Counted from the first letter of the stretch, positions 3,857 through 21,183 are shown. The stretch: DNA of 31,798 nucleotides from Archangiaceae bacterium (GCA_043750125.1 JAYVCD010000384.1:1-31798), one strand, 5' to 3'. Notes: generated by a model not told the origin, from the letters alone. Translations and numbers: made by a program.

Positions 3857-4726
3857 ATGACCATCGTCTGCGCGACCCACTTCACCGATTCCTCGTTGGC
3901 TGCGATCAAGGTGGCCGCCCAACTGGCGCGGACCCATCGCGAGCGGCTGTGCGTGCTCAACGTGGTCCCCCCCGCCCAGAGCTCTTCCGGTTCGGAAAAA
4001 GACGTTGAAATCAGCGCGGTCAACGGCACCATTTCCCAGCTGGCCTCGGAAGGAATTGTCATCAACACCACCACCGTCTGCGGCCCGCTCGCGAGCGCCG
4101 TTCGCCAGGCGTGCGCTGTCAACCGGGCGAGCCTGCTGGTGGTGGGCGATTCTCACCAGACTCTGGGCCCGCTGATTGTGGGCCCGCTCGACCGTTTCGC
4201 CGACAGCATCGGAGTGCCCTCGCTGATCGTTCGCGACGCGACGCCCTTCGCCGCCTGGTCGGCCGGAACGGGCCCGCTGAAAGTGATGCTCGCGATGGAC
4301 GGCACCTGGAAGTCGGCCGCAGCACGAGAGTGGATCATTCGTCTTTCCGCCTTTGGCCCGATCGACCTCGTGGCCTCCTACCTGTGGTGGCCGAAAGACG
4401 AACGCCAACCCCGCGCCTGGGCCCTGGTGGCTCAGCGGCTCGAGGCCGAAGCGGCCTTTGCCGGGCTGCCTTCGAACGTGAAGGCCCGAATTCGCCTCGA
4501 AGTGGGCTGCCCCAAGATTGGCCCCCAGTTGCTGGCGCTGGCGAAGGCCAACCACGCCGACGTCTTCGTCCTCGGGACTCACCCTCACCGCGGGCCGGTG
4601 GGTCAACAGTGGTCGGTGTCTCACGAGGTGCTCGCCCTGGCTCCGATGTCCGTCGCCTGCATTCCGGATCCCGTGGTGCGTTCGACTCGGACCCCCAGCC
4701 AGCACGGGTTTCGCGCGGCGTCCTGA
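3857..4726 (+). CDS. Universal stress protein (tandem USP domains)
   Basis: MTIVCATHFTDSS, LLVVG, second domain KVMLAMD...ADVFVLGTH...SVSHEVL...VACIP. AAGGAG RBS. Confidence 0.88.
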   Translation: MTIVCATHFTDSSLAAIKVAAQLARTHRERLCVLNVVPPAQSSSGSEKDVEISAVNGTISQLASEGIVINTTTVCGPLASAVRQACAVNRASLLVVGDSHQTLGPLIVGPLDRFADSIGVPSLIVRDATPFAAWSAGTGPLKVMLAMDGTWKSAAAREWIIRLSAFGPIDLVASYLWWPKDERQPRAWALVAQRLEAEAAFAGLPSNVKARIRLEVGCPKIGPQLLALAKANHADVFVLGTHPHRGPVGQQWSVSHEVLALAPMSVACIPDPVVRSTRTPSQHGFRAAS

Positions 4727-4750
4727 ATCGCCCCGGTTGAGGCGGTTTTG
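4727..4750 (+). terminator. Weak possible intrinsic terminator after the USP gene
   Basis: ATCGCC/GGCGGT stem with one G-U pair, followed by a short T run. Confidence 0.3.
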
Positions 4751-4827
4751 TACTGCTCCCTTTCCAATTCGCCACACCCCAGCGCCAATTCCGGGCCGAA
4801 GCGCGCCTGAAAGTCACGGTTCGATGA

Positions 4828-4843
4828 CGGCCTGAGAGTTGCT
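4828..4843 (+). promoter_or_regulatory. Putative sigma54 promoter of the six-gene envelope operon
   Basis: CGGCCTG-AGAG-TTGCT. Upstream direct repeat CCAATTC at 4764 and 4785 (21-bp spacing) could be an activator site. Confidence 0.55.
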
Positions 4844-4894
4844 GTGCGCAAGTCCAACGATTTACCCCACGCAAGCGGAGCCTCGGCAGGTCCC

Positions 4895-6046
4895 ATGACC
4901 CAACCCATCGTTGCGAGCGAACCGGCCTCTTCCGCTCCAGTCCCGAAGAGGGCCATGCAAGTCGCGAAGATGCTCGCGTACTTCGCGATGTTGGTGCTCG
5001 GGGTGCGCCTGCTCGAAGAGATCCTCCGGGAAATCTCGAAGACCCAATACGCCGACGAGCTCAGCCGGGTCAGTGGAATGGCCGCGTCGCTGCTCGACGT
5101 GAACAAGAACCTCGACGACCTGATCGTCACCTTCTTTGCGCTGACGATCACCTTCTTGCTGATCCTCCCCATCTCCTGGGTTCACACCATCACCAAGGGC
5201 GACGAGAGCGATCCTTCGCTGACGCAGACGTTGATCGTGCTGAGCGTCATCGTCGCCGGGGTGATGCTGCTGCTGGACGACAACCTGGCCAGGTCGTTCA
5301 GTCTCGTCGGCGTCGTGGCGGCAGTGCGGTACCGCAACACCCTCAAAGATCCGAAGGACGCGGTCTACGTGTTTCTCTCGCTGGGCATCGGGATGGCCTG
5401 TGGGCTCCAGAGCTACCACGTCGCTCTTTTCCTCAGCCTGTTCGAGTGCGCGATCTTGCTGATGCTGTGGCTCTACCAGGCGGGCGCTCCCGCTCCGGGC
5501 GAAGCAAACCTGCTGCAGACGCTCAAGGACAGCGAGAACAAGGGCCAGCGAACTCCGGCCCAGGCGCTGGCGTGGCTGACGCCCGAGGCCCGCGAGCGTC
5601 TCGAGGCCGACCTCGAAACGCAGAGCCGGTACATCACCATGGCGAGCATGTTCACCAACAAGAAGGGCAAGTCGCCCAACGCGGTGATCACCGTTCGGAC
5701 CTCGGGCTCAGGCTCGGCCCGGAACAGCGTCAACGCCCAGATGGAAGACCACCGCGGAAAGTGGCGACTGCTCGGCACCGAAGAAAAAGATGGAGTGACC
5801 ACCCTCGAATATCTCGGACGGCTGTCCCGCAAACGATCGCCGCCGATGAACTTCCTCGAACGGCTTCGGGTGGCCGACCCCGGCGTCCACCATGTCGCGT
5901 TCCGTTCGCTGCGAAAAATGGTGGCGGACAAAGCGACCGCCGGTGAGCCCAGGGCGTCGGGCCCCAACGCAGCGGCCGCTCTCAATGGAGTGAGTTCCAA
6001 GGTTCACAGCGGCAAGGAAATGAAAGCTCGGGAGAGGAAAGAATGA
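4895..6046 (+). CDS. DUF4956 domain membrane protein
   Basis: Several TM segments and the signature NLARSFSLVGVVAAVRYRNTLKDPKDAVYVFLSLGIGMACG, followed by a soluble C-terminal domain. ATG 4895 preferred; start uncertain. Confidence 0.85.
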   Translation: MTQPIVASEPASSAPVPKRAMQVAKMLAYFAMLVLGVRLLEEILREISKTQYADELSRVSGMAASLLDVNKNLDDLIVTFFALTITFLLILPISWVHTITKGDESDPSLTQTLIVLSVIVAGVMLLLDDNLARSFSLVGVVAAVRYRNTLKDPKDAVYVFLSLGIGMACGLQSYHVALFLSLFECAILLMLWLYQAGAPAPGEANLLQTLKDSENKGQRTPAQALAWLTPEARERLEADLETQSRYITMASMFTNKKGKSPNAVITVRTSGSGSARNSVNAQMEDHRGKWRLLGTEEKDGVTTLEYLGRLSRKRSPPMNFLERLRVADPGVHHVAFRSLRKMVADKATAGEPRASGPNAAAALNGVSSKVHSGKEMKARERKE

Positions 6047-6570
6047 GCCTGCGAACGGTGATGCAGCGTCTGACTGAGCGTCCTCCGCGGAACGTCGGGG
6101 GAGGAGATCTGGTGACGCGCTTCCTCGCGATTGCCGGACTGGCGCTGATGGCAGGGATGGTGGCTCCCCAGGCGAAGATTTCGTTTCCGCTGGTGAAGAT
6201 CACTTTGCTCACGGCCGCAGAGCTGGGCCTGATGAGCTTGATGCTCGGGCTGTTCTTGAGAACGAAGACCTACTTCGTCGGCCTTCAGCTCTTCTGCGCT
6301 TCGTTGGCGATGCTGTATTTGGCGAATCGAAATTTTCCATTGGCCGCCGTCACGGTTGGGCTGCTGTTCGTCGCAGTGGGAATGCTGAGCGTGGTGACCC
6401 GCCGCAGTCGGTTGAATGCCGTCCTCGAGATCAATTCTCTGCGGGTGCCCCTGGAAGAAGCCGATGACGCGGCCGCCGCTCAGGAATTGCTGGACGTGGA
6501 ATCCGGGGGGAAGAAGACGCCTCCCCATGGTCCGCCGCTCAAAGCCGCGGCCCAGGGTGGCGCGCGATGA
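6043..6570 (+). CDS. Small multi-TM membrane protein, YgaP/DUF2892-like ends
   Basis: ATGA overlaps with both neighbours; about 4 hydrophobic segments; RNVGGGDLVTR and LNAVLEINS echo the DUF2892 NVGxxDRxxR and LYALLGINT motifs. Confidence 0.65.
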   Translation: MSLRTVMQRLTERPPRNVGGGDLVTRFLAIAGLALMAGMVAPQAKISFPLVKITLLTAAELGLMSLMLGLFLRTKTYFVGLQLFCASLAMLYLANRNFPLAAVTVGLLFVAVGMLSVVTRRSRLNAVLEINSLRVPLEEADDAAAAQELLDVESGGKKTPPHGPPLKAAAQGGAR

Positions 6571-7250
6571 CCGCCCTCAATCATTCGACCAACAGCGCGC
6601 TGGCCACCGAAGCCGTGGCCGCGCTAGGGCTGGGCCCGTCTGAATCCGAATCGAAGAAAGAAAGGAAGAAGAGAAAGAAGAAAGAGAAACACGAGCATCG
6701 CCTCGAGGCGGCACAGCCCGGCATCGACGCAGCAGCCGAGCCCGCACCCGAACCTCAGCAGGCGCCCCCCCAGATGCGGCTGCAGACCTGGCTCAAGGCG
6801 GTGTCGCAGGGGCTCGAGTCTGATCGGGTCGTCACCGCCCAGAAGTCGAATTTCCTGATCGCGATCAACTGCCTCATGTTGTCGATCGCCGCCCATTCGA
6901 TCTACCGCGACTTCGAGTTCAGCCCGCTGCAGTGGGCGTTGCTTCCCCTCGCGCTGACCAACGTCCTGTCTTTGGCGTTTGCAGTCTTCGCCGCGCAGTT
7001 CCGCCTTCAGCCCACCGCGCTCGAAGAGCTCTGGGCGATGCCCTCGGACGAGTACGAGCCCGCGGTCGCAGCGCGGCTGCAGGACAAGCAGCGCGTCTAC
7101 GCAGATCTCAACACCGACCTTCGCGTTCTCGGCGCTGACCTGAGCAAGCGGCATAGGCACCTGCGCACCGGGTACAACGTGCTGCTGGGCGGGGTCGCGC
7201 TGTCGACCTGCTTGTTCGTGGTCTGCATCGCGGCAGGGACGAGGGGCTGA
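6567..7250 (+). CDS. Pycsar-effector-like (PycTM/DUF5706) membrane protein with Lys-rich N-terminus
   Basis: KSNFLIAINCLMLS TM1, TNVLSLAFAVFAA TM2, DEYE...VYADLNTDLRVLGADLSKRHRHLRTGYNVLLGG TM3 follow the DUF5706 pattern (KANI...N, LG..L.KKY..LR..YN.F). Confidence 0.7.
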   Translation: MTALNHSTNSALATEAVAALGLGPSESESKKERKKRKKKEKHEHRLEAAQPGIDAAAEPAPEPQQAPPQMRLQTWLKAVSQGLESDRVVTAQKSNFLIAINCLMLSIAAHSIYRDFEFSPLQWALLPLALTNVLSLAFAVFAAQFRLQPTALEELWAMPSDEYEPAVAARLQDKQRVYADLNTDLRVLGADLSKRHRHLRTGYNVLLGGVALSTCLFVVCIAAGTRG

Positions 7251-7266
7251 AAAATTGTCCCAGTCA

Positions 7267-10200
7267 ATGAAGCAACTCATGGTGGGCCTGGCGGTCCTTT
7301 GTCTTCCGCTTCCGGCGCACGCCGCCAAGTCCGACAAGACGGCGCGCGACTTCACCGTGCTGGTCGTCGGCGGCTCGGCGGGCGACGGGACCACTCCCAC
7401 CTTGAGCCAGCTCAAAGAACGGCTGCAGTCGGCGGACCCCTCGAGCGCAGTGGTGCTCTTCACCGGCAATTACAGCCGCGAAGAGCTTCCGACCGAAGCT
7501 GAGGAAGGCCGCGCCCAGGCGGAAGCAGAAATTCTGGCTCACGTCACCGCCACCGAAGACTTCGTGCGGCGCGGCGGCAAGGTCTACTTTCTGGCCGGGC
7601 AGCAGGACTTCGCCGAGGGGGGGACGAAGGCCGTTCGCAGGCTGCGAAAATTTCTCAACCGGTCCTTCGCCGCCGTGGCGGGCGACCCGGACTCCGACGA
7701 CAAAGAGGATCTCGACGTGATGCCCCAGGCCGCCTGTGGCACCCCCACCCAGCTTGATCTCACTGCGAATCTCGGGCTGCTGCTGGTCAATTCTCAATGG
7801 TGGATGCAGGACTGGGTCGCCGACCCTTCGTTCAACGAAGGCTGCGAAGTGAAGACCCGCCAGTCGTTTCAGGAAACCTTGATCGACGCCCTGCGCACCT
7901 ACCGCAACCGGCGACTGGTGGTGGCGAGCCATCACCCGCTGCGCAGCTATGGCGAGGGCGGCGGCCAATTTACGGCGCGCGCCCACTTGAGTCCGGTTCC
8001 GTTGATTGGGACCGCCTGGGTCTGGGCCCGGCAGGCGGGCCTGGTGCCGCAGTACAAGAATCACCCGCTGTATCGCTCGTACGTCGAGATGGTGATCGGA
8101 GAAGCCGAACGAACGGGCTCGTATGTCTTTGCGTCCGGTCACGACGCGAACCTGCAGTTCGTTTCGTTGCACCGACAGGCGCAGATTGTCTCTGGCACCT
8201 CAGGGCTCGTCCCCGCTCGTACGGTGACTGCCGACCCGGGAGACTTCGCTTCGGCCTCGCCCGGCTGGGTCGAGCTGACGTTCGACCCTTCGGGACAAGG
8301 ACAAGCCCGCTACTTCTCGAGCCTCGGCGAGCCGCTGTTCGAAAAAGAGCTGCCGGCGGTCCCGATTCTCGCCCCGGCGCTGTCCGAGCCGCCGCACGCC
8401 CTGCCGCCCAGTCCGGTGGTGGCCGGCTACTCGAAGCATGGGGTCTGGAAGCTGCCCGGCTTCGTGAAACTCTTCGTCGGGTCCTATTACAGCGATGCCT
8501 ACTCTTTGAAGCTGCCCTACGACGTCCTCGATTTGAAGATCGAGCAGGGAGGACTCAAACCCTACAAGGTGGGCGGCGGCCTTCAAACCAACAGCATTCG
8601 GCTGCGCGACCCCGACGGCGGCGATTGGGCGATTCGGGCCACCACCAAAGACTCGAGCCGCCTGCTGCCCTACCCCTTGAGCCAATTCACCGTTGCCAGC
8701 CGATTGCTGGAGCACGGCTTTACCGCCACCCACCCCGAGGCGGCGCTGTCCTTCCCGCGTCTGGCCGAAGCGGTGGGAATGCTGCATCTCAATCCCCGCT
8801 TGATGTACCTGCCCGACCAGGAAGGTCTGGGGCAATACCGGGGCTTCATCACCGATGAAGTGGTGATGCTCGAGCAGCGCACCGAGGGAAAGGCGAAGAC
8901 CAAGAGCTACGACGACATGGTCGAGAAGATTATGGACAAGCCGGCCAAGCATCGAATCGATCAGGAAGCGATGCTGAGGGCGCGGCTGCTCGACGTCTTC
9001 ATCGGCGATTGGGATCGCCACAAGGGTCAATGGCGCTTCGCGGTGACCGTCGGGCCAGACGGAACCAAGACCTACGCTCCGATTCCGATGGACCGCGATC
9101 AGATGTTCGGCAACTACGACGGACTGGGGCTGGTCTTCGCCCGGCTGGTGGTTCCCGCCTCGCGCGCGCTGCAGCCGTTCACCGGCAATTACGGAAGACT
9201 GGGGTGGCTCAACTACAACGCCCGCAACGTCGACGCGTTTGCGCTCAACCAACTCACCCACGCACGGTGGATGGAGATTGCGGCTGAAGTGCAAAAAGCG
9301 CTCACCGACACGGTGATCGACGAGGCCTTCGCGAGCTGGCACCCCGAGACGTTTGCGCTCGACGGAGCTCGAATCGCCCAGGCCCTGAAGATGCGCCGCG
9401 ACAAACTGCTCAGCGCTGCCGAAGACTATTACGCCCTGCTCAGCACCCGGGTCGACGTATTGGGGTCGGCCCACTCCGATCAATTCGATGTCTGGTTTGA
9501 ACCAGGCGGCGCCGTTCGCATTTCGGTTCGAACCCGCAAGGAAGGGTCGACCCCCTACTTCGACCGGGTCTTCGAGCCCAACGACACCCAGGAACTGAGC
9601 CTGTACGGGCTCGAGGGCGATGACGTGCTGTCCGTGCACGGGAACCCCAACCCGCAGTTCACGATTCGTTTCGTCGGGGGCGAAGGCAAGGACTCGTTGT
9701 CCGCGGCGGGCGGCGGTGAGCCCGTCGACGCGCGCAACATTCAGCTCTACGACAGTGAGAAGGGCGCCGAAATCGACCCCTCGATCAAGGTTCGCGACGA
9801 ACGATCGAGCATCGCTTCGCTCAACCAATACGACTCGACCGAAAACCATGAGCCCGACTACGGGTCGTTCATGCCGGGCCTGGTCGTCAACCCCGACGAC
9901 GGGGCGTACCTGGGCGGCCAATACACCCACGTCGTCCACGGGTTAGAAGAGCCCCTTCGCCGCTCGCTACAGCCTGACCGCCTACTTCGCGACCGCCACT
10001 CTGGGCGCAGCGATCGACTTCCGCGCCCTGTTCCCCCAGAGCGCCTCGCTGCTCGATCAGCAGCTGGACCTGACGCTGAAGACCCCCAGCTACACCCGCA
10101 ATTTCTACGGCTACACCAACACCTACGTCGACGACGCGTCACCCAACTACTACCGGGTACGCCAGGCGCAGTACGAGGCGCGCTACGGCTTGTCCTACGG

Positions 10201-10900
10201 CTTCGGCGGCGATCGGACCCGCATCGGCGCGCAGCTGCTGGCCCAGGCCATTGTCACCGAGCCGACCGCAGGAAGGTTCGTCAGCGTCTCTCCTGATGTC
10301 ACTGGGGACACTCTGGGCCCGAGGTACTTCGGAGGCGCTCGGGTGTTTGCTCAAACCAACACCTTCGACAGCCTGACCTTGCCCCGGAGGGGCATCGCGC
10401 TCCACGGCTCGATCGAGACCCGCTACGACCTGACGCGCGCCAATCAAGTCTCGACCAACTTCAAAGCGGCGGGGGCATTCGCGATTCCTTTCGACCGAAA
10501 CCAGCGCCTGGTCTTGCTGACCCGGGCCAGCGTCGAAGCGATCGTCGGAAATCACCCGTTCTATTTTGCGCCCACCCTCGGCGACACCCAGCTGCGCGCG
10601 TACCACAAGCAACAGCTGGCCGGAGATCTTGCGTTTGCCCATACCACCGACCTTCGAGTCGACCTCTTGCGGTTCTATTCGGTGGTGCCCGGGACAGTGG
10701 GCCTGAACCTCTCGGTCGATCACGGCCGGGTGTTTGGCGCTGCAATCTCCACCAATGACTACCATTTGAACTACGGCGGCGGCCTCTGGTGGTCGATCGT
10801 CGACTTGTTTGGCATTTCGGCGAATTACTACCGGGGCCTCGATGGTGGGTCCCGGTTCACCCTTGCAGTGGGCTCCCTCTTTTCGGGGACCGGGTTCTGA
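7267..10900 (+). pseudogene. Large outer-membrane protein: degenerate metallophosphoesterase + kinase-like domain + BamA/TamA-type barrel, frameshifted near 9944 (about 1210 aa if restored)
   Basis: Signal peptide MKQLMVGLAVLCLPLPAHA; HHP and SGHD motifs; GDWDRH...PIPMDRDQ; NPDDG. The frame from 9947 to 10900 is open and continues the barrel (KSPFAARYSLT...NFYG...LGDTQLRAY...GTGF, terminal Phe). May be a sequencing error rather than a true pseudogene. Confidence 0.8.
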
Positions 10901-10902
10901 CA

Positions 10903-11871
10903 ATGATTGCTCTAATTGCCGCACTGCCGCTTCTCTTTTCCCTTCCTGCCTCAGAGGTTGATCGCCCGGATCATCAGGCGGTCAAACCCGATGGTGGATC
11001 TTTGCCCACCGTCGCACCCGGGCTGACTCCTTCTTTTGCCCCGATTCTGGCTCCTGAGTTCGTCGCCGACGGAGGAACCGCCCCGATCGTCACCCGCCCC
11101 ACCTTGTCGGTCTACAGCGTCGATCTGCCGGTCGAAGCGACGGTGACCGGGGGATCTCTGGCGCTGTTCTTGATCGTCGACCTGCTGATCAAGCCGACGC
11201 TGGAAGGCGACATTTCGTGTCGACGGCCGGTCGGGAACATGCGGTGCAACCCGGCCGACCTCACCACCATCGACCGTTATGCCGTCGGCAGGCAGTCGAA
11301 GCCCTGGTCCACGTTCGGCGACGTGGCGCTGTATGCGAGCATCATTGCCCCGGTGATCTACCTGGGCCTCGAAAGCCTGGCGCTGCCCACCGCCGAGCCG
11401 CTGCGCGACTTTGCAAACGACCTGATGGTGGTGAGCGAAGCGATGGCCTTGACGGGGGCGATGCAGACGCTGATGAAGTTTGCGTTCAGACGCCCACGGC
11501 CGGTGCGGTACATCGAGGTCGATGCTCCGCTGAGCAGCTTCGATCAAGAGCTGTCCTTTCCTTCGGGACACACCGCGATAGTCACCGCTGCAACCACCGC
11601 GCTGACCACCACCATCTTTTTGCGTCACCCGCATTCTCAGGTGCGCTACCTCGTGCTGGGAGGTGGCATCTTGCTCAGCGTCCTCACCGCCGCCTCTCGC
11701 GTCGAATCGGGTCAACACTTTCCCACCGACGTTGCGGTCGGAGTTTTGATCGGAGGGTTCGCCGGCTTCGCAGTTCCCTATCTTCACCGAAATAAAATCC
11801 CTCTCATTCCCACCGCCAGCCTCAATCCGTCCACCGGCCAGACTGCGTTTGGCCTTGCGGGAACCTTTTGA
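10903..11871 (+). CDS. PAP2 family phosphatase (membrane-associated)
   Basis: Intact KxxxxRPRP, SFPSGH and SRVESGQHFPTD motifs, several TM segments; ATG 2 nt after the upstream stop. Confidence 0.92.
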   Translation: MIALIAALPLLFSLPASEVDRPDHQAVKPDGGSLPTVAPGLTPSFAPILAPEFVADGGTAPIVTRPTLSVYSVDLPVEATVTGGSLALFLIVDLLIKPTLEGDISCRRPVGNMRCNPADLTTIDRYAVGRQSKPWSTFGDVALYASIIAPVIYLGLESLALPTAEPLRDFANDLMVVSEAMALTGAMQTLMKFAFRRPRPVRYIEVDAPLSSFDQELSFPSGHTAIVTAATTALTTTIFLRHPHSQVRYLVLGGGILLSVLTAASRVESGQHFPTDVAVGVLIGGFAGFAVPYLHRNKIPLIPTASLNPSTGQTAFGLAGTF

Positions 11872-12875
11872 AGAAGAGCGCCGACTGGGGCACCTGGCTG
11901 TCCATGTCCGCCGTGGTGGGGGTGTGCGTGGTGATCGGCCTCCGGGTCGTGTCCCCTGGCGGGGATTCCCCCACCCCGGGCCCGGTACCTGTCGAGGGCA
12001 CCCGGGTCGTGGCGCCGGTCGATGCGGGCCCGGCTGAAGTCCTGGCCCCTGCATCGCAGTCAGAAGCCCCCGGGTATCGACTCAACGCGCCGGACGCGAC
12101 CGCCGTGTTGTCACCGATCTTGAATGAAATTTCGGGACTCTCGCCCTCGAAGGAACCGGACAGTCTGTGGGCGGTGCACGACGAGCGCGGAACGCTGTTT
12201 CGCATTTCGGTCAAAGACGGGTCGGTGCTTCAGGAAGTCTCTTTGGGAAAGAAGGGAGACTACGAAGGCGTCGAGGAAGTCGGAGACATCGTCTACGTCG
12301 CCCGCAGCGAAGGAATCTTGTTGGTCGTCGACCCCAAGGCGGGCGGCGAACCGACCCGACTGAATTTTCAAAAGCAGCTCGGCCTGGCCTGCGATCTCGA
12401 AGGCCTGGCCTACGAGCCGAAACAAAAACGGCTCTTGCTCACTTGCAAGAACGAGGGCTCGAAGAGTCGCCGGTCGAACAAGTCTTTCGAGATCTTCGCG
12501 ATGGATCTCGAGTCCAGGAAAATCCACCGCGAGGCCGTCTACGTTCTCACCGAGCAGCAAATCGATGCCTACATCGCAGCGCACCCCGACATGACCCAGT
12601 TCAAGAAGGCGAAGGGAAACAACTTCGCTCCTTCCGGAGTCGCCGTTCATCCCGAAACGGGCGAGATCTACATTCTGTCGACCCGCGCAAAGATGGTCGT
12701 GGTGCTCGACACCCAGGGCGGCCTGGTCCGCGCCTATGCGCTCGACCCCGCGGTGCATCCCCAGCCCGAAGGAATTGCTTTTGGTCCCGATGGAACCTTG
12801 TTCATCAGCAGCGAAGCGCATGGAAAACGTGCGTTGCTGCAGACGTTCAAACCACCAACGGCGGTGAAAGACTGA
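11868..12875 (+). CDS. SdiA-regulated/YjiK-like beta-propeller protein, N-terminally anchored
   Basis: LNEISGL, LWAVHDE, GDYEGV, DLEGL, FAPSGVAVHP, PQPEGIAF and LFISSE blade motifs; TTGA overlap with the PAP2 stop. Confidence 0.85.
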   Translation: MKKSADWGTWLSMSAVVGVCVVIGLRVVSPGGDSPTPGPVPVEGTRVVAPVDAGPAEVLAPASQSEAPGYRLNAPDATAVLSPILNEISGLSPSKEPDSLWAVHDERGTLFRISVKDGSVLQEVSLGKKGDYEGVEEVGDIVYVARSEGILLVVDPKAGGEPTRLNFQKQLGLACDLEGLAYEPKQKRLLLTCKNEGSKSRRSNKSFEIFAMDLESRKIHREAVYVLTEQQIDAYIAAHPDMTQFKKAKGNNFAPSGVAVHPETGEIYILSTRAKMVVVLDTQGGLVRAYALDPAVHPQPEGIAFGPDGTLFISSEAHGKRALLQTFKPPTAVKD

Positions 12876-12968
12876 AGTTCGCGGCACGCACAAACCAGAC
12901 TGTTCTGAAGAATTCGCGCGCGAGCGGATCTGACTGGCTTCGAGATTTGAGCGTCTTTAGTCAAGCTC

Positions 12969-13298
12969 ATGCTCGAGAGGAAGCTCATCACAATTGCCTT
13001 CGGAGCTGCGCTGTTCGCTTCAGGCCCCTGTAACAAGGTTCGCCAGGAACCGAAGGCTGAAGCCACCCGCGAAGTTCCCGTCCCGACGCAAACCCTTTCT
13101 CCTTCCGTCCCCGGGACGGTGGAAGTCCGGCCGACCCTCGAGCTCGTCGTGCCGGCGAGCACGCCCGCCGAACGTTCCGAGGTCCACCCTGTTCCGTGTG
13201 GGCCGAAGAAACTTCGACTCCCCCCCAGAAGTTTTGGACCTTTTCGAAAAGATAATTTTTCTACAGACCCGCCGCCCGCCCTTAGGATTGAAAGATGA
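12969..13298 (+). CDS. Hypothetical small exported Pro-rich protein
   Basis: Signal-like N-terminus (MLERKLITIAFGAALFASGPC); fills the gap between genes. No family recognised. Confidence 0.4.
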   Translation: MLERKLITIAFGAALFASGPCNKVRQEPKAEATREVPVPTQTLSPSVPGTVEVRPTLELVVPASTPAERSEVHPVPCGPKKLRLPPRSFGPFRKDNFSTDPPPALRIER

Positions 13299-13314
13299 CC
13301 GCCTCAGGGGAATC

Positions 13315-14211
13315 ATGAAAATCATCTGCGCATTGATCGGGCTGGCCACCGCCTCGCTCACCCTGTGGGCTTGTCAGTGCGGCGCCCCCCCCATGAGTTG
13401 TGGGTCGCTGGGTCAAAGCTGCTGTTCGGGCGCGATCGAATGCTCGAGCAACGCGGTTTGTCGCGTCGGAGTCTGCGCACAGTGCGGCGGCCCCGGTCAA
13501 CCGTGCTGTGCCGCCACCACCTGTACGAATGGAGGCTGCTGCGCGAACAACACGTGCATCGCCGTCGGCTCGGCCTGCTCAGGCTTTGGCGTGTGCAATG
13601 CGGGCAGCTGTGGAGGTTGCGGCGCAGCCGGAGAGGCGTGCTGCGGCGGCCGTTGCACCGCCCCGAACGTGGGCTGCTCGGGCGCGGTCGCCGGTTCGTT
13701 GATCTGCCTCACCTGTGGTGGAGCAGGACAACCCTGTTGCGCCAACGGGGCCTGCACTGGCTCGAACCTCGGCTGCGCGGCCAACAACACCTGCGCCCAG
13801 TGCGGGGGCGCGGGGCAACCTTGTTGCTTCAACAGCACCTGCGGCGACAGTGCACTCGCCTGCAACCGGGGGATCTGCGCGCAGTGTGGCGGTCCGGGGC
13901 AGGTCTGCTGTCCGGGCAGCGTCTGTACCGGCGGCGGGTGTTGCGATCAAAACGGCCCCACCTGTCTGGCCCCCGCCAGCAGCTGTCCCGGAAACCAGGG
14001 CCTGTGCAGTGGAGGCGGCTGCCAGGGAGGTACCTGCGGCAAGGCCGGTCAGCCGTGCTGTGGAAGCGGCATCGATTGCACCGCTCCTTTTACCGACTGC
14101 AGCAAGGGCAACACGTGCACCGGGTGTGGAGATCTCGGCCAGAAGTGCTGCAACGGAGACACTTGCCTCACCGGGCGCGGGTGCAACCGTGCCACCGACA
14201 CCTGCCAGTAG
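13315..14211 (+). CDS. Cys-rich repeat lipoprotein (CGxxGQxCC modules)
   Basis: AGGGG RBS, signal peptide ending LWAC-QC, about 20% Cys, eight CGxxG(Q/E)xCC repeats. Confidence 0.85.
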   Translation: MKIICALIGLATASLTLWACQCGAPPMSCGSLGQSCCSGAIECSSNAVCRVGVCAQCGGPGQPCCAATTCTNGGCCANNTCIAVGSACSGFGVCNAGSCGGCGAAGEACCGGRCTAPNVGCSGAVAGSLICLTCGGAGQPCCANGACTGSNLGCAANNTCAQCGGAGQPCCFNSTCGDSALACNRGICAQCGGPGQVCCPGSVCTGGGCCDQNGPTCLAPASSCPGNQGLCSGGGCQGGTCGKAGQPCCGSGIDCTAPFTDCSKGNTCTGCGDLGQKCCNGDTCLTGRGCNRATDTCQ

Positions 14212-14582
14212 AGCCGCGCTCGCTGACTTGCGCCGGGAAGATCGGCTCACACCGCGCACCCGTCGTGACCTTCTTTGACATCGAACATCGGGGTGAACGT
14301 GCGCATCTTGAAAGGCCACGCGCGCGCGATCGATGACGCAGGACCGCGTCGAAGCAACCCGAGAACGGCTCGAACCGGATTGAAGCCAAATTTGAGCTTG
14401 GTGGCAGTCAGAGTGTCCGTCGCCCGCGAAGGACGTCGAAACGCCTCCTTGCCCACCACGCAGAAGAGGGTCGCTCGCGGTCCGCACCTCGTGCCCGCCG
14501 GAATTCCACACCTGTGGCGATTCGCCTCAGGGCCGGATTTGGGCCGACCGTAAAAGCCCCAGCAAAACCGCCACAACTTGGC

Positions 14583-14598
14583 CGGCTCGGCCTTTGCT
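14583..14598 (+). promoter_or_regulatory. Possible sigma54 box (or extended -10) directly before the MlaE-like gene
   Basis: CGGCTCG-GCCT-TTGCT 13 nt before the ATG; no RBS visible, so a near-leaderless transcript is implied. Confidence 0.35.
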
Positions 14599-14611
14599 AA
14601 GCCTTCGCGCG

Positions 14612-15745
14612 ATGCCCGAACACGCCTACGCTCTCACCCGCATCGAGGGGCAAAAAGGAGCTTCGGCGCTTCATATTGAAGGGCAGCTGACGTTCGCCGA
14701 GGCTGGCTTCCTCTGGGCCGATCTGCTGCAGAACGTCGGAGAGGTAGACAAGGGCCAGCGCATCGACTTCGACATGTCTAAAGTTGAACGGGTCGACGGT
14801 GGCTCGATGGCTCTGCTGGTCCAACTTCGCGCGGACCTCCATCGGCGGGGAGCCTCGGCCGAGTTTGTCGGCGCAGATGATCAGGTTCAAGAGATCATCC
14901 ATCTGTACCGGGGCGATGTTCTCGTCGGAGCACGCAAAAAACGGCGCGCCCAGGGAATGATCGAGCAGATCGGCGCCAGCACCGTGGCGCTCTTCGGTGA
15001 GTTCAAGCAGGTCTTCGGGTTCTTCGGTCAGGCCCTCGTCGCGACGGTGGGCGTGATCGCCAAGCCAAGGACGGCGAACTGGAAGGACGTAACCCCGACG
15101 ATGGAAAGGACAGGCGCCGACGCCGTACCCATCGTGGTGCTGATCAACTTCCTCGTCGGCTTCGTGATGGCCTTCCAGGGCGCCGTTCAGCTCAAGCAAT
15201 TCGGCGCCAACATCTTCGTCGCCGATCTGGTGGGCCTGTCGATCTGCCGCGAGCTGGGCCCGCTGATGACGGCGATCATTCTCTGCGGCCGATCGGGTGC
15301 TGCGTTCGCCGCCGAGATCGGGTCGATGAAGGTCTCGGAAGAAATCGACGCGCTGCGCACGATGGGCTTCGGCCCGATGCGATTCCTCGTTCTTCCGCGG
15401 ACCCTGGCCCTGGTGTTGGTGCTGCCGTTGCTCACGCTCTTGGGAGACGCAGTCGGCGTTCTCGGCGGACTGGTCGTCGGAATCTTGAGCCTCGATTTGA
15501 CGGTTGTCGGGTACCTCAACGAGACGCAGAAGGCGCTCTCGATGTGGGACATCTACTCGGGGATGATCAAAAGCGTGGTCTTCGCGATGGTGATCGCCCT
15601 CATCTCTTGTCAGCAGGGGCTGGCGACCACCGGTGGCGCGGCGGGAGTCGGGAAGCGCACCACCTCGTCAGTGGTTTCGATTCTCTTCGCGCTGATTCTC
15701 GTCGACGCCGGGTTCACCATTTTTTTCTACGCCTTCAACCTATGA
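14612..15745 (+). CDS. mlaE: MlaE-family ABC permease with N-terminal STAS domain
   Basis: STAS-like FDMSKVERVDGGSMALL; RELGPLMTAIILCGRSGAAFAAEIGSMKVSEEIDALRTMG; GVGKRTTSSVV. Confidence 0.92.
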   Translation: MPEHAYALTRIEGQKGASALHIEGQLTFAEAGFLWADLLQNVGEVDKGQRIDFDMSKVERVDGGSMALLVQLRADLHRRGASAEFVGADDQVQEIIHLYRGDVLVGARKKRRAQGMIEQIGASTVALFGEFKQVFGFFGQALVATVGVIAKPRTANWKDVTPTMERTGADAVPIVVLINFLVGFVMAFQGAVQLKQFGANIFVADLVGLSICRELGPLMTAIILCGRSGAAFAAEIGSMKVSEEIDALRTMGFGPMRFLVLPRTLALVLVLPLLTLLGDAVGVLGGLVVGILSLDLTVVGYLNETQKALSMWDIYSGMIKSVVFAMVIALISCQQGLATTGGAAGVGKRTTSSVVSILFALILVDAGFTIFFYAFNL

Positions 15746-16506
15746 GCCCCCTGATCAAAGTCACCGACCTGTCGATGGGCTGGGACACCACGGTGCTGCT
15801 GCAGAACGCCAGCTTCGAAGTCCCGCGCGGCGACATCTTCGTGATCCTGGGAGGCAGCGGCTGCGTCAAGTCGACCCTGCTGCGCTACCTGATTGGGCTT
15901 GAAACCCCGCTCAACGGGACGATCTGTGTCGACGGAGTCAAAGAGTCGTACCTCGAGGTCGGCCGCCCTCCTTACGGAGTGATGTTTCAATCGGGAGCGC
16001 TCTTCGGCTCGATGACGGTCGGCGAGAACCTCTCGCTGCCCCTGGGCCAGTGGACGGACCTTCCGGTCGATGCGATCAACGCGATCGTTCGAGCCAAGCT
16101 GCGGCTGGTCGGACTTCAAGACGCCGAGAACAAGTTTCCGTCCGAGCTGTCGGGCGGAATGAAAAAACGCGCGGCGATCGCCCGCGCGATGGTGCTCGAG
16201 CCTGAGCTCATCTTCCTCGACGAGCCGTCCGCCGGGCTCGACCCCGTCAGCTCCTTCGAGCTCGACGAGCTGATCCTCTCGCTCAACAAGGCGTTGGGGC
16301 TGACCGTCGTGCTCGTCTCGCACGAGCTGCAGAGCATCTTCGGCATCGCCAAGAACTGCATCATGTTGGACAAGGCGAGCAAGAGCATCATCGCGCGCGG
16401 CGACCCCCGCGAGCTGCGCGACTCTTCTCAAGATCCCCGGGTGAGCTCCTTTTTCAACCGCAGCGCGGGCCCCCCGGTACCCGCTCCCAATCCCTCTGCT
16501 CCCTGA
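15742..16506 (+). CDS. mlaF: MlaF-family ABC ATPase (Walker A variant GGSGCVKST)
   Basis: FQSGALF, LSGGMKKR signature, IFLDEPSAGLDP Walker B, VSH switch; ATGA overlap with mlaE. Confidence 0.92.
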   Translation: MSPLIKVTDLSMGWDTTVLLQNASFEVPRGDIFVILGGSGCVKSTLLRYLIGLETPLNGTICVDGVKESYLEVGRPPYGVMFQSGALFGSMTVGENLSLPLGQWTDLPVDAINAIVRAKLRLVGLQDAENKFPSELSGGMKKRAAIARAMVLEPELIFLDEPSAGLDPVSSFELDELILSLNKALGLTVVLVSHELQSIFGIAKNCIMLDKASKSIIARGDPRELRDSSQDPRVSSFFNRSAGPPVPAPNPSAP

Positions 16507-16518
16507 AGGACGCCCGTC

Positions 16519-17460
16519 ATGAGCACTCCCACCAATCATTGGAAGCTTGGTCTCTTCGTCGTCGTCGGCATCTGTGCCTGCGTCGCGACCGTCATTTTCT
16601 TCGGCGGCCGGTCGTTGAAGAAAGAGACCGTCGCCTACAAGACCTACTTCGACGAATCCGTTCAGGGACTCGAGCTCGGTTCGCCGGTTAAGTTCCGCGG
16701 CGTGAGCATCGGCAACGTCTCGGACATCAACCTCGCCGGCGACAAGCGCCACGTCGGAGTCACCTACGAGCTCGGGGTCAAAGTGCTCAACTCGTTGGGG
16801 TTGGCCGAAGACAAAACGAAGGGAACCAAGACCAAGCTCGTCATTCCGCCCGATCTGCGGGTTCAGCTCGCGTCGTCCGGGATCACCGGCGTGAAATTCA
16901 TTCAAATGGACTTCTTCGACGTGAAGTTCAACCCCCCCATCGAGCTCCCGTTCGAGGTCCCCGACAACTACATCCCCGCCACCGCTTCGATGATGAAGAA
17001 CCTCGAAGACTCGGTGGTGAACGCGGTCGACCGATTTCCTGAGGTCGCCAAACAGTTGCTGATGGTGCTTACCCGGGTGAGCACCATTCTCGGGGAGATC
17101 GAGGGCATCCGCCTTCCGGAAAAACTGTCCGACACCCTCGCCCTGCTCAACAAGGTCTTGAACCAGGTCAACACCGCGCTCGTCGCGCTCGACACCGGGA
17201 CTCTTTCGAAAGACGCGCAGCAGACGCTCAAGAATTTGAACGTCGCAGTCACCGGCATCAACCAGATTGTGGGCAGCGTTCACCGCACCTCAGAGGCAAT
17301 GGGGAACATGGCGCAGAACGCAACCCATGTCGGGCCGGCGATGGAAGACGCGCTGCGAGACGTGCAGGGCGCCGCTCAGTCGGTCCAGCGGCTCGCAGAC
17401 GCGCTCGAGCTCGACCCGGACATGTTGATTAAAGGCCGCGCCAAGAGGGTCGCCAAATGA
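16519..17460 (+). CDS. MCE/MlaD family protein
   Basis: N-terminal TM, YFDESVQGLELGSPVKFRGVSIGNV, GITGVKFIQM, helical C-terminus. Confidence 0.92.
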   Translation: MSTPTNHWKLGLFVVVGICACVATVIFFGGRSLKKETVAYKTYFDESVQGLELGSPVKFRGVSIGNVSDINLAGDKRHVGVTYELGVKVLNSLGLAEDKTKGTKTKLVIPPDLRVQLASSGITGVKFIQMDFFDVKFNPPIELPFEVPDNYIPATASMMKNLEDSVVNAVDRFPEVAKQLLMVLTRVSTILGEIEGIRLPEKLSDTLALLNKVLNQVNTALVALDTGTLSKDAQQTLKNLNVAVTGINQIVGSVHRTSEAMGNMAQNATHVGPAMEDALRDVQGAAQSVQRLADALELDPDMLIKGRAKRVAK

Positions 17461-18098
17461 GTCATTCCAGAATTGTCGTGCTGATCTGCTCGGTGTTCGC
17501 GCTGCAAGGCTGCGCGTTGTTTTCGAAGGGTGAAGTGACGATGCGTCGCTACTACACCCCCGAGCTGTCGGCGATCAGGCCGTCTCAGGCGCACTCGAGC
17601 TCGGAGCTTCGTTTGGGTCGGGTGACGGCTGGCGTCTACATCTCGGAACGAATCATGTTTCGGGAGTCGGCCTACGAGGTCGGCTTCTACGACGATCGCA
17701 TTTGGACCGAGAAGCCCGAGGCCTACCTGCGACGCGGGCTCGGCCGGGTTCTGTTCGAGGAACAAGGTCTGCGCAGCGTGGTGCGCGGCGCGGGGCCAAC
17801 TCTCGACGTCGAGCTGATTTCCTTTGAAGAAGTCAAAGCGCCCCAGCACATTGGCCGGGTAAAGCTTTCCTTTGCGCTCAGTGACGAACGGGTGGTCTCG
17901 CTGCAACAGACCATCACCGTCGATCGCCCGATCATCGAGCAGTCGCCCAAGAACGCGTCTACCGAAGCCTCCGCAGTGGCTCAGGCCATGGGTGAGGCTC
18001 TGCGGGACGCCATCTATGAGGTCTCGAATCGGGTGGTCGGCGACCTCGCGAAGGCGCCTGGGGCCATCTCGCCCTGCCCGGTCGCGACGGCTCCGTAG
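17457..18098 (+). CDS. ABC-type transport auxiliary lipoprotein (PqiC-like)
   Basis: Lipobox LQGC, YY motif, DRIWTEKP; last gene of the MCE operon with ATGA overlap. Confidence 0.85.
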   Translation: MSHSRIVVLICSVFALQGCALFSKGEVTMRRYYTPELSAIRPSQAHSSSELRLGRVTAGVYISERIMFRESAYEVGFYDDRIWTEKPEAYLRRGLGRVLFEEQGLRSVVRGAGPTLDVELISFEEVKAPQHIGRVKLSFALSDERVVSLQQTITVDRPIIEQSPKNASTEASAVAQAMGEALRDAIYEVSNRVVGDLAKAPGAISPCPVATAP

Positions 18099-18306
18099 GT
18101 CGGATCGCAGTGGAAGGTGTGGCGGTGTCGTCCGGCGCGATTCGCGACGGTGGGGCTTTACGCACCAACAAGCTCAATCACATCGGCCTTTGGCAACCCC
18201 GCGACCTCTGGACACCGAGAGCCGACTTCCGATGACGTTTGCCTTAAAGCGTGGCGCAAATGCATTCGCGTTCAGCGCTACCTACGGAATGTGGCGAGGT
18301 TGCGGC

Positions 18307-18322
18307 TGGCACGAGGGCTGCT
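18307..18322 (+). promoter_or_regulatory. Putative sigma54 promoter upstream of the ice-binding protein genes
   Basis: TGGCACG-AGGG-CTGCT, near consensus, in a 448-bp intergenic region. Confidence 0.6.
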
Positions 18323-18546
18323 CAAGCAACGTCGCGCACCACATCGGGGGCGAGGCCCTCGATCACGCTAAGCAAAAGGTTGAACAGCCAGCCCGTCGCT
18401 CTCCCCGACGGTCTACAGCTCAGCAACCTACCGCCACCCACAGTCCCGTACAACGCGTTCTCGGGGCGAACCGAAGTGGTGCAGCTCTCACTTTTCCGGC
18501 CGGCAAACTTCAATTCACGTTTTTCTCGAGACTGACAGGTCCCCCA

Positions 18547-19776: not shown

Positions 19777-19795
19777 TCAAAAGCCGGACCGTCGC

Positions 19796-19816
19796 CCGCC
19801 AGCAGCCGTCTGGCGG
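19796..19816 (+). other. GC-rich hairpin between the two ice-binding genes
   Basis: CCGCCAG-cagccgt-CTGGCGG inverted repeat; no immediate U tract. Confidence 0.4.
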
Positions 19817-19911
19817 CGCCGGATGTTAGCGATTGACTTGCTGTTCAGCCGTTGTCCTTTTTTCACTTTTCGTCTTTCGAGCAATCGCAAGACGCAATGA
19901 CAGGTCTACCC

Positions 19912-21069: not shown

Positions 21070-21183
21070 TCGCTTGCGACCCACATCGCCGTAGACGCCC
21101 GGAGACGCCCATCTTCGACCTTGTTTGCGGTTGACCCGTTCCAGAAAGCGCGCGTAAACAACCGTCTGAGGCCTAGAATTTCG

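Follow-up and report, generated by a model that had tools for sequence, protein, structure and literature searches.

The window analysed here, the whole 31,798-nucleotide (nt) contig JAYVCD010000384.1 (positions 1-31798, assembly GCA_043750125.1) of an Archangiaceae bacterium, carries on its plus strand six genes (4895..12875) that form a real, conserved and so far uncharacterised envelope gene set. Judged from structure models, the core of this set is the product of gene 4, an outer-membrane barrel bearing a kinase-fold domain, and the kinase fold is its conserved part. We read the six genes as a sigma54-driven operon for an envelope module that would move or turn over phosphoryl groups and that is conserved in one family of Myxococcota, a reading to which we give a probability of about 0.45.

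The window is the entire contig C384 of a metagenome-assembled genome of 6.17 Mb in 460 contigs (89.4% complete, 1.96% contamination). The host is a soil or sediment myxobacterium, and the named homologues come from metagenome-assembled genomes of Myxococcaceae and Archangiaceae. The G+C content of the window is ~0.63, and a third-position G+C above 0.72 marks out its real genes. A preliminary description of this DNA had reported six co-oriented genes joined by overlaps or tiny gaps (ATGA, ATGA, 16 nt, 2 nt and TTGA), and its coordinates and all five junctions agree with ours. Moreover, the starts of genes 1, 5 and 6 are backed by orthologue alignment, and hydropathy indicates a signal peptide or a membrane segment in all six products. 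The features of the set are as follows.

4828..4843, plus strand: sigma54-type promoter candidate (GG-N10-GC; CGGCCTGAGAGTTGCT), ~52 nt 5' of the gene 1 start
4895..6046, plus strand: gene 1, long-form DUF4956 inner-membrane protein, 383 amino acids (aa) (Pfam, hydropathy)
6043..6570, plus strand: gene 2, 175 aa, four hydrophobic segments, lineage-specific (hydropathy; matches no family)
6567..7250, plus strand: gene 3, PycTM-type membrane protein, 227 aa, with a cytoplasmic poly-lysine tract (Pfam PycTM)
7267..10900, plus strand: gene 4, signal peptide, phosphatase-like domain, kinase-like domain and Omp85 barrel, frame interrupted (homologues, models)
gene 4, plus strand, aa 28-362: degenerate purple-acid-phosphatase-like domain (fold match)
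gene 4, plus strand, aa ~395-727, nt 8449-9447: protein-kinase-like domain (fold match)
gene 4, plus strand, nt ~9448-9816: GGxGxD beta-roll-like segment (alignment)
gene 4, plus strand, nt ~9859-10897: Omp85 barrel (profile matches)
9943..9946, plus strand: frame break of gene 4, lacking two bases that intact homologues have (DNA alignment)
10903..11871, plus strand: gene 5, PAP2 integral-membrane lipid-phosphate phosphatase (Pfam, motifs)
11868..12875, plus strand: gene 6, SdiA-regulated / phytase-like six-bladed beta-propeller with an N-terminal membrane anchor or signal (Pfam, hydropathy)

Gene 4 is predicted to carry a kinase-like fold on an outer-membrane barrel

Searches with gene 4 found 69 homologues, mostly intact proteins of 1200-1280 aa, 12 of which, for the most part distant ones (26-31% identity), bear precomputed PF00149 and/or PF01103 annotations. 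Residues 1-896 of the window's protein matched no Pfam or NCBIfam model, even at Pfam E<=10 (NAD_binding_1 at 0.022 was disregarded); the CotH family (PF08757), considered as a candidate, was likewise not matched by these residues at that threshold. Structure was therefore modelled for residues 1-892, from 63 aligned sequences (mean predicted local distance difference test, pLDDT, 91.7), and separately for residues 380-892 (pLDDT 92.7). When compared by VIA-align, the middle domain matched CotH (5jda, Z 13.8, 247 aligned residues, root-mean-square deviation 4.4), PI4K-IIα (4pla, Z 13.8), CtkA (3akj, Z 12.7), HipA (Z 11.2) and actin-fragmin kinase (Z 10.8), then PI3K/PIKK kinases and Fam20, with the lipid kinase MavQ also present; among the matches listed, almost all of the 33 chains at Z>=8 are kinases. 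Foldseek returned CtkA at E 1.1e-5 and CotH at E 5.0e-5, with a probability of 1.00 for CtkA, CotH, Rio2 and HipT. On the models, the middle domain of gene 4 is a bilobal protein-kinase-like fold.

The domain shares with the atypical kinases CotH, PI4K-IIα, CtkA and HipA (4pu3) not only the fold (Z 11.2-13.8 over 214-256 aligned residues), but also a catalytic-loop motif of the D-x-H-x-x-N/Q type and a second Asp motif, while differing from them in its low identity (8-14%), its lack of a Pfam family and its predicted extracytoplasmic location. Residues K461, E536, D581, H585, D609 and D611 are invariant in the 63 sequences and, by motif resemblance, would represent the kinase Lys/Glu, the catalytic-loop Asp/His and the metal-binding Asp. 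The Gln of the loop presumably sits where atypical kinases have Asn, a position likewise set by motif resemblance. In addition, the motifs GDWDRHxxQ and DRDQ are unchanged from Myxococcota through Bacteroidota. The family is large: a full cluster scan with the kinase-fold domain (clusters at 50% identity) gave 2049 clusters at E<=0.001, 1561 at E<=1e-10 and 972 at E<=1e-30, and no Pfam or NCBIfam model matches the domain. Two main sizes occur among the 150 matches listed, one of ~1200-1260 aa with the domain near residue 420, and a short form of ~850-900 aa with the domain near residue 50, which lacks the phosphatase-like domain.

The N-terminal domain matched purple acid phosphatases by Foldseek (E 1.9e-11 to 3.5e-10), and also GAP50, PhoD and acid sphingomyelinase; its likeness to GAP50 and the mammalian purple acid phosphatases spans E 1.9e-11 to 4.1e-10, and the gene 4 family profile matched GAP50 at E 3.4e-6. 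Five metallophosphoesterase motifs, which bind two metals (GDxG, GDxxY, GNH[DE], H and GHxH), were compared. They read GGSAGDG, GNY, GQQD, HHP and GHDA in the window, and each of the 12 Myxococcota copies compared departs from active purple acid phosphatases in the metal-ligand motifs I, II, III and V. Bacteroidota homologues retain GDxG, GDNIY, GNHD, HHP and GH[DE]H; in four copies from Bacteroidota, Rhodothermota and Ignavibacteria, motifs I and II begin with GD and motif V is GHxH or AHxH, with motif III being GNHD in three of them and GDGE in the Rhodothermales copy. Going by these motifs, the two-metal site has most likely been lost and the phosphoesterase domain is most likely catalytically dead in the Myxococcota lineage. 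We take the domain to resemble GAP50, which is non-catalytic, more than an active phosphatase.

At the C-terminus, Pfam Omp85 (PF01103) matched at E 3.9e-4 and 20.5 bits, below its cut-off of 24, and NCBIfam Omp85_fam at E 5.4e-7, far under its cut-off, while the family profile matched BamA (8xnb) at E 1.5e-4. The description of gene 4 as a phosphoesterase-kinase-like-barrel protein thus stands as far as the modelled folds and the PF00149-bearing homologues go, but neither a single open frame nor active metal motifs were found, and the Omp85 match stays sub-threshold. Between kinase fold and barrel lie short strands with GGxGxD-type repeats, in which G804, G805 and D809 are nearly invariant. 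No POTRA domain is seen in the model of residues 380-892, where residues 349-513 are all beta strands, with no helices before the barrel. From the Omp85 topology and two cysteines, C157 and C193, that are invariant in the 63-sequence family alignment, the passenger is most likely periplasmic.

POTRA-less Omp85 subfamilies are known, and one of them, 'Metallo', joins the barrel to an N-terminal PF00149 domain (Heinz and Lithgow 2014, PMC4104836). In the available part of that paper, PF00149 is named a metalloprotease and only speculation is offered on its role; the text available mentions neither a kinase-like domain nor partner genes, and its supplementary Table S3 may list members. Gene 4 is like this subfamily in having a PF00149-type fold (Foldseek E 1.9e-11) together with a barrel, and in having homologues that carry PF00149 and PF01103, and is unlike it, as described there, in that the PF00149-type domain is degenerate and a 330-residue kinase-fold domain is the conserved part. 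The barrel fusion itself has thus been on record since 2014.

An enzyme passenger fused to an Omp85-type barrel also recalls PlpD and type Vd secretion (patatin passenger, POTRA and barrel), as these are outlined in the partial sources available, and the protein could accordingly be pictured as a type Vd-like autotransporter that exposes its kinase/phosphatase passenger at the surface of the cell, for use in predation or cell contact. The GGxGxD repeats preceding the barrel, and CtkA and HipA-type kinases among the fold matches, would suit such a display. Nevertheless, we consider it highly improbable, as gene 4 has no patatin domain and its export is putative, the model has no POTRA-like helices between kinase fold and barrel, the partners are membrane and periplasm proteins, and neither immunity nor chaperone genes, and the cluster is inherited with the lineage in the tree described below.

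The gene set is conserved within one family of Myxococcota

We searched 401 Myxococcota genomes for gene 4 and found a relative in 24 of them, including the host's own; 16 loci were fetched and compared by tblastn. The long form of gene 4 is present in seven other genomes of the host's family and in four of a second family. In agreement with the expectation that the genes would co-occur elsewhere, the complete order from gene 1 to gene 6 is found in three other genomes of the host's family (loci L113, L117 and L118), and near-complete sets in four further genomes. L116 lacks PAP2 only; contig ends truncate L123 (5.9 kb) and L106 (4.6 kb), and L106 also lacks gene 3; and genome G263 has genes 1, 2, 3, 5 and 4 in that order on one contig, with the rest of gene 4 and two copies of gene 6 on another (L124 and L125). 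Beyond these, gene 4 is accompanied by PAP2 alone in L115, and by a divergent SdiA-regulated gene and a DUF4956 gene in L119 and L120, of the second family. Flanking genes differ between orthologous loci, with only Usp recurring, and only in L113, so that the conserved unit ends at 4895..12875.

A maximum-likelihood tree of 15 gene 4 sequences, from which the Ignavibacteria fragment L038 was left out, groups the cluster-linked copies together (support 83/81), apart from the solitary paralogues of the same genomes (88/94). As a side observation, the cluster of L113 (G355, 14538-15697) is followed by a short barrel remnant (barrel residues 235-317) and another PAP2 gene (62% identity to gene 5), after which comes a PAS histidine kinase with a receiver domain.

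The frame of gene 4 is interrupted in this assembly

Frame 1 of gene 4 extends to 9942, beyond which it runs on as an arginine-rich nonsense tail to 10296; there is an in-frame TAG at 9944-9946, and the barrel resumes in frame 2 from 9947 to 10900, where, as is usual, it closes on an aromatic residue. When the DNA was aligned with that of three intact homologues, namely the nearest orthologue, a further orthologue and a paralogue from the same genome, a 2-nt gap appeared at 9944/9945. Contigs, rather than raw reads, of four DNA runs from one study were placed on the window, at a depth of ~6.6. Two runs, X1 and X2, each have a contig whose end falls precisely at 9944, the following contig beginning at 9990 (X1) or 10046 (X2), and 9945-9989 is covered by no contig in any of the four runs. 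Since two bases are missing and independent contigs of two runs end there, gene 4 represents either an assembly error or a pseudogene.

That the cluster is decaying here, with gene 4 a true pseudogene whose role an intact paralogue has taken over, is a possibility to be taken seriously, though we would not expect it. The two-base gap relative to three intact homologues would fit it, as would the identical truncated product of 1009 aa recorded from a second contig of 12,382 bases, and the intact paralogue of gene 4 on contig C207 of the same genome. However, both halves of gene 4 keep a high third-position G+C (0.76 and 0.82) and all conserved motifs, the stop of two runs' contigs at 9944 and the uncovered stretch at such depth suit an assembly fault, and the C207 paralogue falls in another clade of the tree. 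As both halves retain coding signatures and every conserved motif, we lean slightly to an assembly fault rather than a real lesion, so that this copy of gene 4 may be functional.

The C207 paralogue itself (8869-12561, locus L112) encodes 1231 aa, is 57% identical to gene 4, and has none of the other five genes nearby. It is divergent from a gene on the minus strand (6732-8903) for a 724-aa PKD-repeat protein with purple-acid-phosphatase N and Metallophos domains. In another metagenome-assembled genome of the same genus, gene 4 shifts frame in the barrel at a different place (L106, G400:C876, 3332-3340), and such breaks may be common in low-coverage assemblies.

Beyond Myxococcota, the barrel gene keeps PycTM-type and SdiA-regulated partners

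A scan of genome contigs matched 605 stretches, of which 595 encode a gene 4 relative, and 80 loci were kept, mostly from Bacteroidota, with others from Gemmatimonadota, Ignavibacteria and Rhodothermota. Partners were counted in these 80 loci by plain tblastn; with iterated profiles, the count was confined to a distance of 3.5 kb from the barrel gene and to the 56 loci outside Myxococcota that are well flanked.

PycTM-type partner: 14/80 by plain tblastn; 35/56 by iterated profiles
SdiA-regulated partner: 18/80 by plain tblastn; 23/56 by iterated profiles
PycTM-type or SdiA-regulated partner: 40/56 by iterated profiles
PAP2 partner: 5/80 by plain tblastn; 7/56 by iterated profiles
DUF4956 partner: 2/80 by plain tblastn; 1/56 by iterated profiles
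gene 2 partner: not found in 80 loci by plain tblastn; 0/56 by iterated profiles

Pfam was also run on 93 neighbouring open reading frames of 12 sampled loci. The PycTM partners were HD-PycTM fusions of ~400 aa in eight loci and PycTM proteins without a detected HD domain in two, while SdiA-regulated proteins occurred in six, PPK1 in two and class III cyclases in three. The placing of HD-PycTM and SdiA-regulated genes beside the barrel gene in Bacteroidota, mentioned in the preliminary description, is thus borne out by profile and Pfam neighbourhood data alike, and the same holds for ppk: phmmer over all loci detected PPK1 in 12 of the 80. Four of five Gemmatimonadota loci have it immediately adjacent to the short-form gene, and three Chitinophagaceae loci have it after HD-PycTM. 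A count of 12 in 80 within ~10 kb is far above chance, with the proviso that related genomes are non-independent.

These loci also bear on whether the barrel proteins serve phosphorus scavenging, that is, whether phosphatases tethered to the outer membrane free phosphate from organic or polymeric phosphorus, with the kinase fold as a binding or regulatory module. Bacteroidota copies of gene 4 that retain all purple-acid-phosphatase motifs would agree with such a role, and so would locus L062, where a beta-propeller phytase, a Metallophos protein and a TonB-dependent receptor are neighbours of the cluster, and the PKD/purple-acid-phosphatase protein beside the C207 paralogue. Still, we regard scavenging as unlikely, given that the phosphatase motifs are lost in 12 of 12 Myxococcota copies, that the domain is missing altogether from short forms in 14 of the 80 loci, that the kinase-type residues are invariant throughout, and that the candidate promoter is of the sigma54 type.

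Three further observations concern these neighbourhoods. Nineteen of the 80 loci (for instance L011 5266-7629, L035 4610-6991, L044 13743-16109 and L062 3964-6324) encode a protein of ~790 aa that matches nothing in Pfam or NCBIfam; its gene usually adjoins that for HD-PycTM, and it may represent one more partner in Bacteroidota that has so far gone unrecognised. Near the HD-PycTM gene there are also class III adenylate/guanylate cyclase genes (L016, L033, L053, L015, L020 and L067; 5/80 loci by phmmer, 3/12 by Pfam), a hint that a cyclic nucleotide is what the HD-PycTM protein responds to. Finally, three of the 80 loci (L030, L039 and L044) have Ku and LigD genes, for end-joining repair, within a few kb of the barrel gene.

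The five genes around gene 4

In hidden Markov model searches, the DUF4956, PycTM, PAP2 and SdiA-regulated assignments made earlier all scored above their Pfam cut-offs. Gene 1 matched DUF4956 at E 4.2e-13 (49.8 bits, cut-off 30.6), as did seven of seven aligned orthologues, and has about four hydrophobic segments followed by a soluble C-terminal part of ~180 aa. Its nearest Atlas clusters are DUF4956 proteins of 339-364 aa, commonest in Gemmatimonadota, which fits the two Gemmatimonadales loci where DUF4956 accompanies the short barrel gene. No solved structure matched gene 1 at E<=1; in Atlas, the C-terminal part showed a weak resemblance to MgtC/SapB C-terminal domains (score 0.77), and five of seven orthologues gave sub-threshold MgtC matches (E>=0.16), both of which are leads and not assignments. 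Gene 2, whose earlier description as a protein with four transmembrane segments agrees with its hydropathy, matched nothing in Pfam (even at E<=10), NCBIfam or PADLOC. A search of 5.8 billion clusters, limited by shared words, found 20 relatives (45-100% identical), and the conserved motifs are PxRNVG..D and TRRSRxN. Prediction of a complex of gene 1 and gene 3 (residues 70-227) with gene 2 scored 0.01 against a mark of 0.32, which lends such a complex no support.

Gene 3 matched Pfam PycTM at E 2.1e-7 (31.7 bits, cut-off 27.2). It has the PycTM membrane part only, so that its assignment as a PycTM/DUF5706 protein holds for that family, but the HD domain mentioned for Bacteroidota is missing, and its tail bears a lysine run instead, with a poly-Lys tract in five of seven orthologues, the window's included. 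Its membrane domain family is that of the Pycsar effector PycTM, and models of PycTM / 2TM effectors match both gene 3 (PADLOC 2TM effector model, E 4.3e-4) and the Bacteroidota HD-PycTM protein (E 5.4e-14). These matches, and the class III cyclases of five of the 80 loci, would suggest a Pycsar- or CBASS-type defence module gated by cyclic nucleotides. This is barely credible for the window, however, as none of the six products is a cyclase or has a nucleotide-binding domain, the other five products have no PADLOC match, the setting is one of conserved housekeeping genes and not a variable island, and, unlike in Pycsar, the N-terminus of the PycTM-type protein is a poly-lysine tail in gene 3 and an HD domain in Bacteroidota.

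Gene 5 matched PAP2 at E 1.1e-23 (83.8 bits, cut-off 27.2), and sequence and alignment agree that its catalytic motifs are intact: KFAFRRPRP (KxxxxxxRP), PSGH and SRVESGQHFPTD (SRxxxxxHxxxD). Its nearest solved relative is LpxE (6ebu, E 6.2e-5). Gene 6 matched SdiA-regulated (PF06977) at E 3.4e-19 (69.4 bits, cut-off 21) and Phytase-like at E 3.5e-7, with residues 7-33 forming the hydrophobic segment. The resemblance of the PAP2 protein to LpxE raises the prospect of outer-membrane lipid remodelling without polyphosphate, in which a PI4K-like domain and an LpxE-like PAP2 would together set the phosphorylation of lipid A or another envelope lipid. LpxT, which reportedly uses lipid pyrophosphate as donor, could serve as a model for the donor. 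The fold matches to PI4K-IIα and the lipid kinase MavQ would be in keeping with lipid remodelling, as would the Mla-type lipid transport operon that adjoins the set at 14594-17460. We nonetheless hold it to be improbable: fold likeness cannot tell lipid from protein kinases, of the 56 well-flanked loci outside Myxococcota, only seven have PAP2 near the barrel gene, and orthologous loci show no synteny for the Mla genes.

A sigma54-type promoter candidate precedes the set

The pattern CGGCCTGAGAGTTGCT matched once in the window, compared with 0.10 matches expected by chance. A box CGGC[CG]YR-N4-TTGCT lies 56-90 nt 5' of gene 1 in five of five orthologous loci, and, the window included (6/6 loci), this is the sole contiguous invariant block upstream of gene 1. 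The sigma54-like box of the preliminary description is therefore present and kept. Moreover, rpoN is encoded in the same genome; no activator gene for the candidate promoter was identified. Over 4400-13400, a scan for the sigma70 consensus gave one promoter-like site against 0.9 expected, and a terminator scan gave 15 terminator-like sites against 8.6 expected, neither of which is informative.

A second, partly conserved element, CGCCACA, is found at window positions 4770-4776, ~55 nt before the sigma54-like box. It aligns in L116, L118 and L124, is part of CAAGAACGCCACA in two loci, and could be a binding site for an activator.

Neighbouring genes of the window

Upstream of the set lie a ferredoxin/desaturase-like gene and a Usp gene. 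Downstream, an open stretch at 12994-14211, with a likely start near 13375, encodes a cysteine- and glycine-rich repetitive secreted protein with CGG.GQ.CC-type repeats and no family match in Pfam or NCBIfam. It is followed by the MlaE-STAS / MlaF / MlaD operon, by two tandem genes with Big_5 and ice-binding-like domains (17872-21069; E 4e-70 and 1.2e-71), and by chemotaxis-type signalling genes, among them a fusion of 1844 aa (21121-26655), 3' of the ice-binding-like pair, that combines CheB, CheR, PAS, GAF, histidine kinase and receiver domains.

Related genes in the same genome and in the literature

The genome encodes one DUF4956, one PycTM and two SdiA-regulated genes. Of the genes for polyphosphate metabolism that the preliminary description suggested looking for elsewhere, ppk1 (PPK1 being matched once) and ppx are on contig C34, a second ppx on C193 and ppk2 on C313, while no VTC domain (PF09359) was found in this 89.4% complete genome by a search that did find the family in three control genomes. 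Pfam CotH likewise gave no match in the genome at that completeness.

The association of DUF4956 with VTC and CotH, mentioned earlier, has a published counterpart: according to the part of a preprint available (bioRxiv 10.1101/768473), CotH, a polyphosphate polymerase (VTC), DUF4956 and DUF4832 are accessory genes adjoining pel loci of Gram-positives. As far as that source describes it, our set is like the pel-linked cluster in pairing DUF4956 with a CotH-type kinase fold and in its polyphosphate link, but differs in that neither VTC nor Pfam CotH is found in the genome, in the fusion of its kinase fold to an outer-membrane barrel, and in the long form of DUF4956, with its extra C-terminal part.

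Literature on DUF4956, DUF5706, Omp85 with metallophosphoesterase and Omp85 with a kinase-like passenger contains no description of the cluster that we could find, in accordance with the earlier statement that no function had been characterised for this combination. A Riemerella metallophosphoesterase retrieved in this context is an enzyme secreted by the type IX secretion system and is unrelated to gene 4. Titles and abstracts on PycTM deal mostly with phage defence or cyclic pyrimidine nucleotides and do not describe the cluster, and those on YjiK yielded nothing functional.

Proposed function

We infer the substrate, the donor, the topology and any physical complex of the six products, and propose the following. 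The three inner-membrane proteins (long DUF4956, the protein with four hydrophobic segments and the poly-lysine PycTM-type protein) would deliver or gate a phosphoryl donor to the periplasm, most likely polyphosphate made by PPK1, otherwise a nucleotide. The kinase-fold domain would then move phosphate onto an outer-membrane lipid, glycolipid or protein, and the PAP2 phosphatase and the phytase-like propeller may remove or trim the transferred phosphate. The single envelope-spanning machine of the preliminary description is a hypothesis, and so is its polyphosphate role, which has now gained some backing from gene neighbourhoods.

The donor is central to this proposal: since the periplasm lacks ATP, an active periplasmic kinase depends on an unusual phosphoryl donor. 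Our best candidate is polyphosphate, on account of the PPK1 neighbourhood and the DUF4956, CotH and polyphosphate polymerase neighbourhood published in the excerpted preprint; the phytase-like and PAP2 hydrolases point the same way. Even so, that polyphosphate is the actual donor is unlikely in our own estimate, and we would put as little trust in the broader proposal that widespread outer-membrane-anchored kinase-fold enzymes phosphorylate lipids or proteins on the periplasmic side of the envelope without ATP, using polyphosphate passed by DUF4956 and PycTM-type proteins.

Several results weigh against the phosphoryl-handling operon as we read it. Gene 4 reads as frameshifted in this assembly, and the periplasmic placement of its passenger is assumed, in a compartment for which we know of no ATP source. 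Genes 1, 2, 3, 5 and 6 each occur in only seven of the 16 Myxococcota loci, and four well-flanked copies of gene 4 are solitary (L112, L114, L121 and L122). Outside Myxococcota, the near absence of DUF4956 (1/56) and the absence of gene 2 (0/56) make the six-gene set lineage-specific and not a universal machine. In addition, ppk and ppx lie off the contig, VTC and CotH are missing from the genome at its present completeness, and the idea of a polyphosphate donor is speculation.

To our knowledge, little is known of the role of polyphosphate in the bacterial envelope. We found no characterised precedent for a kinase-fold domain tethered under the outer membrane. If true, the broader proposal of outer-membrane-anchored kinase-fold enzymes supplied with polyphosphate would mean that Gram-negative bacteria have an extracytoplasmic phosphorylation system, the first of its kind, and that a function could be assigned to bacterial DUF4956. 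Moreover, as the conserved domain defines a large family without a Pfam model, characterising one culturable Bacteroidota member (from Dyadobacter, Chitinophaga or Flavobacterium) would allow thousands of genes to be annotated.

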